In this document: piece by piece, positions 17,739 through 20,348 of the stretch
How positions within the stretch are numbered: position 1 is the stretch's first letter
Layout: each line of letters opens with the position of its first letter
From: Chlorobiota bacterium
Lineage (GTDB): Bacteria; Bacteroidota; Bacteroidia; Bacteroidales; JAADJA01
Direction: 5' to 3'
NCBI GenBank assembly: GCA_013151015.1
Contig: JAADJA010000091.1
Location: 21,891 to 85,890 of the forward strand
Length of the DNA stretch: 64,000 nucleotides
Notes under the pieces: generated by a model
Seen by the model: only the letters and a program-made list of their open reading frames with translations
Told to the model about the DNA's origin: nothing
Databases searched by the model: none
Translations under genes and position numbers: made by a program

Positions 17739-18347
17739 ATGCTGTTAAAGATTTATCCTGACAATCCAAGCGAGAAACAAATACGGACTGTTGCCGAATG
17801 CCTGAATGATGGTGGGGTGATAATTTTCCCGACCGATACAATTTATGCGATGGGTTGCGACATCTATAAACCCAGGGCCATCGACCGGGTAGCGCAGATA
17901 AAAGGAATTAAGAAACAAAAAGCAAATTTCTCGTTCATCTGTCATGACCTAAGTCAATTGTCGGATTTCACGAAACCCATTAGCAACGAAGTGTTCAAGC
18001 TGATGAAGAGTTCTCTTCCTGGCCCTTTCACGTTTATCCTGAACGCAAATACAAATGTGCCAAAGATTTTCCAAAGCAAGAAAAAAACCGTTGGTATCCG
18101 TGTTCCCGACAATAATGTCACCCTGCATATCATTCGGGAATTGGGGAATCCGGTCATGTCAACATCCATTCACGATGAGGACGAAATTATTGAATACACC
18201 ACTGACCCTGAATTGATTTACGAAAAATATGGAAATTTGGTCGATATTGTAATCGATTCCGGTTATGGTGATAATACACCATCCACCATAGTTGATTGTA
18301 CGGGAAGTGACATCGTCGTTGTTAGGGAAGGAAAGGGGGTTATTTAA
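17739..18347 (+). CDS. tsaC: L-threonylcarbamoyladenylate synthase (YrdC/TsaC family)
   Basis: 202 aa. GGVIIFPTDTIYAMGCD, IKGIKKQKANFSFIC and VGIRVPDN give the YrdC-domain pattern. Confidence 0.85.
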   Translation: MLLKIYPDNPSEKQIRTVAECLNDGGVIIFPTDTIYAMGCDIYKPRAIDRVAQIKGIKKQKANFSFICHDLSQLSDFTKPISNEVFKLMKSSLPGPFTFILNANTNVPKIFQSKKKTVGIRVPDNNVTLHIIRELGNPVMSTSIHDEDEIIEYTTDPELIYEKYGNLVDIVIDSGYGDNTPSTIVDCTGSDIVVVREGKGVI

Positions 18348-18367: not shown

Positions 18368-18712
18368 ATGGGGAAAATGGAAATGGTTCGTGGTAATATT
18401 TTTAAATTCACCGAAAAACGAATTGAAAGAGGTGAAACCTTCGAGACACTTTTAAAATCAAAAAGCCTATTATTTGAGAAGATAATGACACATGGTGAAT
18501 TAAAGTCCCCGGGGAAGTGGTATGATCAGGAAAAAGATGAATGGGTGATGCTTGTCCAGGGAAAGGCTATATTGGAGTTTGGGGATAAGAAACATATTGA
18601 AATGTTAAAAGGTGATTATTTGATTATCCCAGCCCATAAAAAACACCGTGTATTGGAAACCAGCGAAAACACTGATTGTATTTGGCTTGCCTTGCATGGA
18701 GACTTCAAATAA
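18368..18712 (+). CDS. Cupin-domain protein
   Basis: 114 aa. The GKAILEFGD...LKGDYLIIPAHKKHRV beta-barrel motif is typical of small cupins. Confidence 0.65.
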   Translation: MGKMEMVRGNIFKFTEKRIERGETFETLLKSKSLLFEKIMTHGELKSPGKWYDQEKDEWVMLVQGKAILEFGDKKHIEMLKGDYLIIPAHKKHRVLETSENTDCIWLALHGDFK

Positions 18713-18789: not shown

Positions 18790-18819
18790 TTGATTTAAAT
18801 AAAAAAAGATTTACTTTTG
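18790..18819 (+). promoter_or_regulatory. Promoter of tRNA-Lys (TTG-N19-TACTTTTG)
   Basis: TTG at 18790-18792, a 19-nt spacer, then TACTTTTG at 18812-18819, an exact TAnnTTTG match. The tRNA starts at 18834. Confidence 0.65.
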
Positions 18820-18833
18820 CACCTCGAAAAAAT

Positions 18834-18906
18834 GATTTCGTAGCTCAGTTGGTAGAGCAACGGCCTTTTAAGCCGTGGGTCCTGGGTTCGAGCCCCAGCG
18901 GAATCA
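18834..18906 (+). tRNA. tRNA-Lys (anticodon UUU)
   Basis: 73 nt. Acceptor GATTTCG/CGGAATC, D-arm TAGCTCAGTTGGTAGAGC, anticodon arm ACGGC-CTTTTAA-GCCGT, T-arm CTGGG-TTCGAGC-CCCAG, discriminator A. CCA is not encoded. Confidence 0.95.
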
Positions 18907-19450
18907 CAAGAAAAGCTCCTTGTTGCAAGGGGCTTTTTTTGGTTATACAGATGATAAATATTATATATTGGAGCTGGGGCGCGAGAAGTCTATCCTGACA
19001 TACAGAGTATCGTCGGGGAGCCCCAGCGGAATCACAAGAAAAGCCCCTTGTTGCAAGGGGCTTTTTTTGGTTATACAGATGATAAATATTATATATTGGA
19101 GCTGGGGCGAGAAGTCTATCCTGACATACGGAGTATCGTCGGGGAGCCCCAGCGGAATCACAAGAAAAGCTCCTTGTTGCAAGGGGCTTTTTTTGGTTAT
19201 ACAGATGATAAATATTATATATTGGAGCTGGGGCGAAGTCTATCCTGACATACAGAGTATCGTCGGGGAGCCCCAGCGGAATCACAAGAAAAGCCCCTTA
19301 TCACAAGGGGCTTTTTTTGGTTATACAGATGAAAAACATTATAAAATGCAGCTGGGGCGAGAAGTCTATCCTGACATACGGAGTATTGTCGGGGAGCCCC
19401 AGCGGAATCACAAGAAAAGCCCCTTATCGCAAGGGGCTTTTTTTGGTTAT
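18890..19450 (+). repeat. Tandem array of ~126-bp modules (4 full + 1 partial) seeded by the tRNA-Lys 3' end; candidate structured RNAs
   Basis: GAGCCCCAGCGGAATCA occurs at 18890, 19018, 19144, 19268 and 19394 (periods 128/126/124/126). Each unit contains a terminator, the GCTGGGGC...GCCCCAGC 8-bp long-range complement and an internal 10-bp bulged hairpin. Confidence 0.9.
18914..18940 (+). terminator. Intrinsic terminator after tRNA-Lys (first of five near-identical ones)
   Basis: AGCTCCTT-GTTGC-AAGGGGCT followed by a T7 run. Copies follow each repeat unit, ending near 19068, 19194, 19318 and 19444. Confidence 0.85.
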
Positions 19451-19553
19451 AATACCTGACAATTCGGCTTTATCGTGCATTCTTTACACCCGTAACCAAA
19501 ATTATTTATCTAATTTCGCATTTAATCTTCAGTTTTCATTTAACAAACAATCA

Positions 19554-20348
19554 ATGATAAGAAATGTGATTTTTGAGGGGAAAAGTATCCACTATAAAGT
19601 GGAAGGCAAGGGGAAACCAATTATCCTTCTTCATGGTTTTCTGGAATCATTGGAAATGTGGGATCGTTTTTCAGACGTACTTTCATGCGAACATACTGTT
19701 ATCCGTATTGATTTACCTGGTTTTGGGAAAAGCCAATCGATTGGCAAAACACATTCCATGGAACTAATGGCCGGTTCGGTGAAAGCGGTCATGGAACAGG
19801 AACAAATTGAAAAAGTGGTCATGGTTGGCCATTCCATGGGAGGATATGCTGCACTTGCCTTTGCTGATAAGTATCCTGAACACCTTACCGGTCTTTGCCT
19901 TTTCCATTCACAGGCCGCTGCCGACACAGAGGAGGCCAAAGCGAACAGGGAACGTACTGTTCAAATTGTTGGGCAAGACCGATTTGGCTTTATCAGCAAT
20001 TTTATACCGGATTTGTTTGCCCCTGAAAATATCCAAAAATTCAGTAGGCAAATCGAAAGCCTGAAAAGCAGTGCGATGCTTACAAGTAAAGAAGGGGTTA
20101 TTGCCGCCCTAAGGGGAATGAAGGAGCGTACGGAAAAATTTGAACTTCTTGATAAATTGGTTATCCCTATATTGTTTATTGCCGGGAAAAAGGACAAACG
20201 CATTCCAGCAACCACAATTATGGAGCAAGCTCTTTTACCAAGTCACAGCGAAGTATTATTGTTGGGAAATGTTGGTCATATGGGTTATATTGAGGCTGAA
20301 AAAGAGACTCTGGGGACGCTTCGTTGTTTTATGAAAAAATGTGTTTGA
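19554..20348 (+). CDS. Alpha/beta hydrolase
   Basis: I moved the start from the track's 19317 (inside the repeat array) to ATG 19554 (MIRNVIFEGKSIHYKVEGKGKPIILLHGF). It has the nucleophile elbow GHSMGG and a C-terminal GHMGYIE. Confidence 0.85.
   Translation: MIRNVIFEGKSIHYKVEGKGKPIILLHGFLESLEMWDRFSDVLSCEHTVIRIDLPGFGKSQSIGKTHSMELMAGSVKAVMEQEQIEKVVMVGHSMGGYAALAFADKYPEHLTGLCLFHSQAAADTEEAKANRERTVQIVGQDRFGFISNFIPDLFAPENIQKFSRQIESLKSSAMLTSKEGVIAALRGMKERTEKFELLDKLVIPILFIAGKKDKRIPATTIMEQALLPSHSEVLLLGNVGHMGYIEAEKETLGTLRCFMKKCV

Follow-up and report, generated by a model that had tools for sequence, protein, structure and literature searches.

The 64,000-nucleotide stretch of DNA considered here (called the window in what follows) comes from a Chlorobiota bacterium (assembly GCA_013151015.1, contig JAADJA010000091.1) and carries, directly after a tRNA-Lys(UUU) gene, a tandem array of units of about 126 bp, each of which contains a copy of the 3' end of the tRNA followed by a terminator. 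The interpretation we tentatively favour, with rather less than even confidence, is that the unit is a conserved, dispensable non-coding element linked to tRNA-Lys, probably a small RNA, which would have been amplified recently in this genome from a dimer to a tetramer by unequal recombination; this is a judgement from comparison of sequences and predicted folds. In kind the unit is either a small, terminator-ended structured element or a minimal module of the attachment-site (att) type left by integrative elements, and both its conservation and its tRNA-derived helix are real and unusual.

The array and its units

Exact matching across the 64 kb finds the final 17 nt of the tRNA (GAGCCCCAGCGGAATCA) exactly five times, at 18890, 19018, 19144, 19268 and 19394, with spacings of 128, 126, 124 and 126 bp, just as a preliminary description of this DNA had reported; five matches were reached by no shuffled sequence, and the hairpin CCTGACATACNGAGTATYGTCGGG occurs four times against none expected. 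Tandem Repeats Finder (TRF) reports a single array (18890-19451; period 126, 4.5 copies, 94% matches), a period of 250 bp scoring equally. The arrangement is A-B-A-B-A-B-A-B-A, made up of five A blocks (58 nt) and four B blocks (66-70 nt), with the caveat that the copy number of four rests on a metagenome assembly and may be wrong. Block A consists of the 17-mer, CAAGAAAAG, an 8-bp terminator stem (which A-U pairs can lengthen to about 16 bp), a U7 run and GGTTATA, while block B consists of an AT-rich spacer and a 44-nt core, GCTGGGGC-GAGAAGTCTAT-CCTGACATAC-NGA-GTATYGTCGGG. The original proposal that the repeat amounts to the last 17 nt of the tRNA is therefore correct as to the exact copies of the 17-mer, but the block actually shared with the flank of the tRNA is the whole 58 nt, from the 17-mer through GGTTATA. 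In the gene itself these last 17 nt (18890-18906) start within the T-loop, and the CCA is not encoded.

Two long open reading frames (ORFs) cross the array, and a search with a 194-aa translation found no homologues among 5.8 billion proteins; the ORFs called across 18.85-19.46 kb are artefactual. This had been suspected on the ground that the unit lengths are not multiples of 3, which is only partly right, as 126 is such a multiple and only the 128- and 124-bp units shift the frame.

Predicted fold

The minimum free energy (MFE) fold of one unit (-51.4 kcal/mol, z = -5.8) contains the GCTGGGGC/GCCCCAGC pairing, a bulged 10-bp hairpin and the terminator, and the same three elements are returned independently by RNAalifold from seven full units, so that the helix, enclosed hairpin and terminator first proposed from the window alone are borne out. 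In this predicted fold the outer helix P1 (GCUGGGGC/GCCCCAGC) encloses P2, a hairpin of 10-11 bp with a one-base bulge, and the terminator comes next. Inside P1 there would be a purine-rich, highly conserved internal loop (GAGAAGUC.A), and after P2 a single-stranded tail (GGAAUCAC...). The 3' strand of P1 is itself a copy of the end of the tRNA T-loop, the 3' strand of the T-stem and the first acceptor base. A covariance model of the unit (R1) aligns the true T-arm of the tRNA weakly to P1 (14.5 bits), which is not evidence of homology, because the 5' strand of P1 pairs with a T-stem 3' strand and so must resemble a T-stem 5' strand.

Differences among the copies in the window had been described as falling in unpaired positions, with a lone stem change that still pairs as G-U, and this is what a count gives: of 13 variable events 12 lie in unpaired columns and the other is a G-C/G-U exchange in the terminator stem (53 of the 128 columns being paired). 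The corresponding P value would be about 0.01 if the events were independent, which they are not, since eight of the 13 occur in the last one or two copies.

The linker after P1 varies in the window in 2-nt steps (GCGCGAGAAG at 18981-18990, GCGAGAAG at 19109-19116, GCGAAG at 19235-19240), and these steps (GC, GA) look like dinucleotide slippage within an otherwise highly conserved loop; in the other genomes the length of the loop after P1 is constant. A dyad at the junction of block B with the 17-mer (CGTCGGGG-AG-CCCCAGCG) was considered as a further element and dropped, being present in the window and not conserved in two relatives (L011 and L015, see below). Readings as a kink-turn, an integron attC site (RYYYAAC/GTTRRRY) or a hammerhead-like motif were also discarded after inspection by eye, the relevant consensus being absent or lying in the non-conserved spacer.

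Conservation at orthologous loci

Orthologous loci were reached through the cupin gene upstream of the tRNA, and the relatives of the window are uncultured Bacteroidota. Comparing copy number at these loci, a check that the preliminary description had suggested, gave a clear outcome. The closest relative, L010 (GCA_024278155.1; cupin 95% identical), has the order Sua5-cupin-tRNA-Lys-hydrolase, with the tRNA and one A block and no unit; L011 (cupin 76%) and L012 (cupin 61%) have tRNA-A-B-A, with one unit each; L015 (cupin 69%) has at least two, against four in the window. L014, which is from another sample, encodes the same cupin protein as L015 and agrees closely with it until the contig ends inside the first core, the two tRNA/unit parts showing a few differences in spacer and core, and the contigs being independent. 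At least four other uncultured relatives (L011, L012, L014 and L015) thus have units behind tRNA-Lys, and model R1, run on the window and 13 loci, found no copies outside tRNA-Lys loci.

Between genomes the 44-nt core is 76-89% identical, which is comparable to the 90 nt 5' of the tRNA (79-93%), whereas the spacers between terminator and core, at 41-63%, are at random level (48 +/- 5% for shuffled spacers). The 5' boundary of the core, GCTGGGG, is identical in all nine copies. For comparison, the tRNA-Lys sequence is 100% identical across all the relatives compared, and the neighbouring cupin is only 61-76% identical in protein in the unit-bearing relatives L011, L012 and L015. A conserved core amid randomised spacers looks more like a small gene than like a decaying scar, and the persistence of single copies in distant relatives suggests that a function is probably present.

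The gene on the 3' side of the unit differs between genomes: the window has the hydrolase there, L012 has dnaE in convergent orientation and L011 an unrelated ORF on the minus strand, so that the idea of a riboswitch or attenuator was rejected: there is no constant downstream gene on the same strand in these three cases, and since the unit follows tRNA-Lys whatever lies downstream it is not the leader of a downstream gene. An antiterminator pairing of AGCCCC with GGGGCU is possible on paper and is much weaker than the terminator.

Contigs of four relatives stop inside, or no more than about 85 nt past, the 3' end of tRNA-Lys (L013 at 3484, L022 at 1031, L023 at 910, L014 at 2553), the end lying at GGAATCAC in L013, inside the T-arm in L023 and inside the B core in L014. 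This suggests that repeated tRNA 3' ends are common in the clade and break short-read assemblies. At L015 31-234 there is also a long, near-perfect hairpin, which gives strong but spurious matches to plant and animal microRNA precursors in Rfam and which probably arose as a palindromic artefact of assembly where this MEGAHIT contig begins.

Amplification and loss

The comparison shows that the ancestral state of the clade is tRNA-A-B-A, with one unit, and that recombination between the flanking A repeats (58 nt in the window) makes the copy number drift, from none in the nearest relative through one and at least two to four here. In the window the variants alternate, the terminator stem running T, C, T, C, C and the P2 loop AGA, GGA, AGA, GGA; it follows from this alternation, and from the 250-bp period found by TRF, that a block of two units was duplicated, the A blocks having recombined by unequal crossing-over of the ordinary kind. 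Divergence is greatest in the unit at the 3' edge, as it commonly is at the ends of arrays. L010 would be the expected deletion product of recombination between two A blocks, since its flanks are identical to those of the window, it has no unit, and the loop and stem of its sole terminator are those of the last terminator (A4) in the window. Copies of A are more alike within a genome than between genomes, and because linker variants of A are common to both copies of one genome (such as CACGGAAAAAG in both copies of L012), recombination must be homogenising the A copies while leaving the core in place.

It could be argued from these same observations that the array is a neutral minisatellite, that is, an accidental duplication of the tRNA 3' flank, propagated by slippage or unequal crossing-over, without function and perhaps with a copy number distorted by assembly. 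The copies are 94-99% identical, show a higher-order periodicity of 250 bp and vary in number between close relatives; the element can be dispensed with; and repeats of 126 bp are poorly handled by metagenome assembly, the contigs of relatives breaking just here. Such a process would explain the amplification, but it would not explain 76-89% identity of the core amid randomised spacers and beside a neighbouring protein of 61-76% identity, and it leaves the upkeep of independent terminators unexplained, so that we regard a purely neutral origin as improbable. The A repeats make loss easy, and yet the unit is retained in four of five lineages, which argues for selection or for repeated re-insertion.

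RNA or DNA element

At the level of sequence and fold the unit has what one would look for in a class of structured small RNAs, namely a conserved sequence, defined boundaries and a conserved, favoured fold. Every homologue folds into P1 and P2, and in each case the + strand gives the more stable fold (MFE of +/- strands: -27.1/-21.3, -29.8/-27.0, -22.2/-21.3, -21.7/-19.3 and -11.9/-9.7 kcal/mol). Changes that preserve pairing are found in P2 (outermost pair U-G, U-A or C-G; middle pair U-G or C-G), in P1 (C-G to U-G) and in the terminator stem (one pair being C-G, U-G or U-A); moreover, G-U pairs occur at five positions and A-C pairs at none, a bias that points to the + strand as the one that folds. 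Sequence in the P2 loop is unconstrained (AGA, GGA, ACA, GAA, and 5 nt in L011). A terminator is retained by every unit, including those in which its sequence is wholly unlike the others; the three terminators of L015 differ from one another in sequence, and the L015 stem types GCCCCUU/AAGGGGC and GCCUCUC/GAGAGGC are related by compensating changes, two pairs being altered on both sides.

All this said, a number of observations weigh against the small-RNA interpretation. Covariation is not significant: 95.6% of cells pair, as against 94.7% in shuffles, with one pair changed on both sides among six distinct sequences. An A-A mismatch occurs in P2 of three units, the loop-closing pair of P2 is C-C in L011, and unit b of L015 folds weakly (z = -0.7). 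The unpaired regions are conserved as much as the stems, which would equally fit a protein-binding site in DNA, and the most invariant stretch of all is the predicted single-stranded GAGAAGTC. Ahead of every unit there is a strong terminator (8-16 bp and a U7 run), the element is dispensable to judge from L010, and the known distribution is narrow, comprising five lineages to which the exact-pattern scans described below added none. Nor is there a conserved promoter. Units 1-3 contain TTTG-N20-TATATTGG, ending 1 nt before GCTGGGG, a layout that we take to match the -33/-7 promoter of Bacteroides; the weak promoter-like box remarked on earlier is thus present in these three units, but neither unit 4 nor L011, L012 or L015 has it. 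The suggestion of a family of structured RNAs of about 100 nt is accordingly strengthened by the existence of homologous units with the same boundary, fold and terminator, and left short of proof by the covariation and the promoters.

Some of these points would be accommodated if the core were instead a site acting at the level of DNA beside tRNA-Lys (an operator, or a protein-binding site related to recombination or replication), the folds then being incidental inverted repeats: the most invariant parts, GAGAAGTC and GACATA, are predicted to be single-stranded, covariation is not significant, and no promoter is conserved. Against this, G-U pairs without A-C pairs and a consistently more stable + strand would be hard to account for, as would the conservation of a one-base bulge asymmetry in a palindrome with an unconstrained central loop; each unit is still followed by a terminator; and the gene downstream differs between genomes, so that there is no common regulated target. 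We therefore consider a DNA site to be about as improbable as a neutral minisatellite.

The small-RNA interpretation can be put in somewhat more specific terms. The unit would most likely be a terminator-ended RNA of about 100 nt, encoded on the + strand and restricted to this lineage, its core persisting through selection in spite of deletion-prone flanking repeats. It would act as RNA, and could be expressed either by read-through of the tRNA terminator or, in units 1-3 only, from a weak promoter of its own, the initial partial duplication of the tRNA 3' end having perhaps come from an integration event at the T-loop. One may guess that the single-stranded GAGAAGUC loop is the surface for interaction and that the tRNA-derived strand serves the structure and does not act as a decoy. 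Unit b of L015 keeps the core and has lost most of the tRNA-derived tail (AGCCCAAGTATAATAAC); since the core can be kept without most of the tail, the copy of the acceptor strand is not the part under conservation.

Remnants of integration

The most serious competitor, which we think somewhat less likely, takes the units for what integrative elements targeting the tRNA-Lys T-loop have left behind, either as stacked minimal att-type remnants or as a miniature non-autonomous derivative. The B core would then be an element-side arm (of attR type) beside a 17-nt crossover block, conserved as the shared arm to which recombinases bind, and the terminator after each 17-mer would have been supplied by the element, keeping the tRNA functional. 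Partial copies of a tRNA 3' end in direct orientation, as found here, are the classic footprint of integration and are normally attR sites (PMC9897764). Such remnants are recognised as direct partial copies of the tRNA 3' end in which identity starts from a canonical sublocation (anticodon loop, T-loop or 3' end), and in the window the five exact 17-mers have identity starting between TTC and GAGC in the T-loop, as at known tRNA and tmRNA integration sites. The ssrA islands of Dehalococcoides have a conserved non-tRNA motif directly upstream of each repeat, show tandem stacking and include gene-poor members that can be mobilised in cis (PMC3146451), so that core plus 17-mer has formally the same layout. 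The presence/absence polymorphism between L010 and the window is also island-like; successive terminators in L015 are non-homologous, as if each insertion had brought its own; and the unit at the edge is the oldest, those nearest the tRNA being the newest.

There are, on the other hand, several respects in which the units do not behave as remnants should. No integrase, excisionase or other mobile-element gene was found by Pfam between the repeats or within 5 kb either side of the array, nor at the L010-L012 loci. In five independent cases what separates the terminator from the core is only 20-38 nt of unrelated spacer, and random deletions would be unlikely to stop at the same boundary each time; a neutral scar lying between direct repeats of about 60 nt should have been lost, or have decayed, at the divergence seen, and yet at this one locus the core has been kept across deep divergence. 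In L015 the direct repeat is confined to about 17 nt, as remnants would have it; in L011, L012 and the window it continues for about another 40 nt, to beyond the terminator, and integration does not predict that A copies of one genome should be identical past the 17-mer. A 126-bp circle is, furthermore, an implausible substrate for recombination.

Searches for an element carrying these sequences were negative. The core has no match in phage or plasmid records, and blastn with the unit found only terminator-like fragments. In IMG/VR the core and junction motifs gave only chance matches in coding sequence (a weak negative, the exact-pattern search being insensitive), and the only match to the 17-mer lay in a phage coding region, so that the integrative element with the 17-mer as its att site, which the preliminary description had proposed looking for, was not found in any of these scans. 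Among GTDB species-representative genomes the exact junction of core and 17-mer has no true copy (one chance match, in an acidobacterial intergenic region), and among JGI metagenomes again none (three chance matches in GC-rich coding DNA).

Taken as a whole, the comparison with pairs of attL/attR tRNA repeats gives likenesses in the 3' copy, the start in the T-loop, the abutting motif, the tandem stacking and the presence or absence between strains, and differences in the gene-free interval of about 68 nt, the lack of a nearby integrase, the continuation of the repeat through the terminator, and a core that has a fixed boundary across deep divergence and is carried by no known element. The att-scar alternative of the preliminary description is thus weakened, by the missing element genes and core matches and by the fixed core boundary, while the T-loop start and the island-like polymorphism still speak for it; and the first partial duplication may well go back to integration, even supposing that the core has since become a host element.

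Relation to known RNAs and tRNA-derived sequences

Searching Rfam, likewise an earlier suggestion, yielded no family for the unit: in Rfam 15 only the tRNA passes the gathering threshold, the units giving sub-threshold matches driven by their terminators. The unit is not a tRNA or tRNA pseudogene either, as RF00005 has no match to a unit at E <= 10, ARAGORN finds one gene, and the core resembles the 5' 56 nt of the tRNA no better than shuffled sequences do. A search of the literature found no description of such a module.

Some comparisons with known systems are nonetheless helpful. In Escherichia coli the 3' external transcribed spacer of glyW-cysT-leuZ lies between a tRNA and the only terminator of the operon and is released by processing; it resembles the unit as a small structured RNA coupled to a tRNA gene and ended by an intrinsic terminator (predicted, for the unit), and differs in that here a full terminator lies between the tRNA and each unit and that the unit copies part of the tRNA. 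ToxI, the RNA of type III toxin-antitoxin systems, consists of repeats of about 36 nt, without internal terminators, which are cut by the product of the adjacent toxin gene. Both arrays repeat a folded unit head to tail, but they differ in period, in the internal terminators and in the lack of a toxin gene here, and a type III antitoxin array was rejected for these reasons (period 126 nt, each unit terminated, and an alpha/beta hydrolase as the downstream gene). The bacterial Y RNA YrlA and the tRNA-like domain of tmRNA keep the T-loop and acceptor helix; the unit is like these mimics in re-using T-arm and acceptor sequence, and unlike them in that its T-loop has been replaced, its acceptor strand is unpaired and it has no Rfam match.

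Features and neighbourhood of the array

The coordinates of the features discussed are collected in Table 1.

Table 1 Features of the tRNA-Lys locus in the window; CM denotes matches to the covariance model (core plus 17-mer).
Feature	Positions	Strand	Evidence or remarks
Sua5/YciO/YrdC-family gene	17739-18347	+	Pfam
Small cupin gene	18368-18712	+	Pfam
TACTTTTG, putative -7 box of the tRNA promoter (TAnnTTTG)	18812-18819	+	Read from sequence
tRNA-Lys(UUU)	18834-18907 (Rfam end 18906)	+	ARAGORN; Rfam RF00005, 72.1 bits
Block A0: 17-mer, CAAGAAAAG, terminator AGCTCCTT-GTTGC-AAGGGGCT, T7, GGTTATA	18890-18947	+
Block B1: spacer and core, linker GCGCGAGAAG, P2 loop AGA	18948-19017	+	CM match 18973-19035, 82 bits
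Block A1: 17-mer and terminator (19042-19068), stem variant C	19018-19075	+
Block B2: P2 loop GGA	19076-19143	+	CM match 19101-19161, 91.2 bits
Block A2: 17-mer and terminator, variant T (G-U)	19144-19201	+
Block B3: linker cut to GCGAAG, P2 loop AGA	19202-19267	+	CM match 19227-19285, 80.4 bits
Block A3: 17-mer and terminator, loop ATCAC	19268-19325	+
Block B4: five spacer substitutions, P2 loop GGA, bulge T; most diverged unit, array edge	19326-19393	+	CM match 19351-19411, 91.5 bits
Block A4: 17-mer and terminator, loop ATCGC; unique flank after	19394-19451	+
Alpha/beta-hydrolase gene, 3' of array	19545-20348	+	Pfam

The box TACTTTTG is presumably the -7 element of the tRNA promoter, of Bacteroidota type, if the published Bacteroides consensus is followed. 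The order Sua5-cupin-tRNA-Lys(UUU) is kept in every relative recovered (L010-L015, L022 and L023). TsaC/Sua5 makes the threonylcarbamoyl-AMP used for the threonylcarbamoyl modification of adenosine 37 (t6A37), which tRNA-Lys(UUU) carries, so that the linkage of the two genes may be functional. More widely, the 5 kb either side of the array are of housekeeping character as judged by Pfam, with PyrK/PyrD-like, LysM, Sua5/YrdC and cupin genes upstream and the hydrolase, a type IX secretion system (CHU_C) gene and PabA/PabB-like genes downstream.

A mechanically called ORF of 343 aa (TTG start, 19317-20348) extends from the array into the hydrolase gene. Its 5' extension is spurious, because the Pfam matches begin near the ATG at 19545 and a 100%-identical database protein spans 99% of the reading from that ATG. 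Within the clade the stretch 5' of the hydrolase gene is variable; at L002 560-760, for instance, the orthologue is preceded by inverted copies of a CTCTCCT.../AAGGAGAGG-type repeat, without a tRNA or an array.

Modules linked to GIY-YIG genes

Two further loci on the 5' side of hydrolase orthologues (L006 1-570 and L004 1-382) contain a GIY-YIG ORF of about 100 aa, the final codons of which enter a very stable structure (MFE -74.7 kcal/mol, z = -9.8), with an outer helix GAUGGGGU/AUCCCAUC around two long hairpins. The 3' part of this module comprises a tRNA-like T-loop, T-stem 3' strand and acceptor 3' strand (TTCAAATCCCATCATGCACCCA), and then a terminator. The module is tandem in L006 (1-123 being 99% identical to 447-569), and the contigs of L004 and L006 both start inside it. 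It has no Rfam family, and its protein was unmatched in a search of viral contigs; the possibility that the tRNA-like tail is a copy of tRNA-Leu was tried and rejected, as it did not match the tRNA-Leu of L012.

These modules resemble the B unit in having a 5' strand that is complementary to a T-stem 3' strand and closes one or more internal hairpins, a tail like an acceptor 3' strand, a terminator of their own, tandem repetition and associated contig breaks. They differ from it in having no sequence similarity to the B core, in the ORF of about 100 aa, and in the other tRNA-like 3' end. By analogy, and as a speculation that we think only slightly less improbable than the DNA-site and minisatellite explanations, the B unit and the GIY-YIG modules might represent separate branches of one undescribed class of elements colonising tRNA 3' flanks in uncultured Bacteroidota. 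Each member would bring sequence to replace the tRNA from T-loop to 3' end, form a helix between this and an upstream complementary strand, and have its own terminator; members might be spread and amplified in tandem by nuclease-triggered repair, or as RNAs pairing with or mimicking the T-arm of pre-tRNA, the 126-bp unit being the form without an ORF.

Implications

For now the practical impact of the array is modest, given a narrow known distribution and a function that is only a candidate one, and the side observation of the GIY-YIG modules may matter more than the array itself. Whether the unit is a small RNA or a minimal att-type module, it accounts for the spurious ORFs across 18.85-19.46 kb. 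A minimal att-type module, should it be one, would illustrate the extent to which elements that target tRNA genes can shrink and yet persist, and would give warning that arrays of this sort interrupt metagenome assemblies at tRNA genes. If it is a real RNA, it would represent a new compact motif with a closing helix taken over from the T-arm of a tRNA, and would provide a clean natural case in which the dosage of a small-RNA gene varies, from 0 to 4 copies, by unequal recombination.

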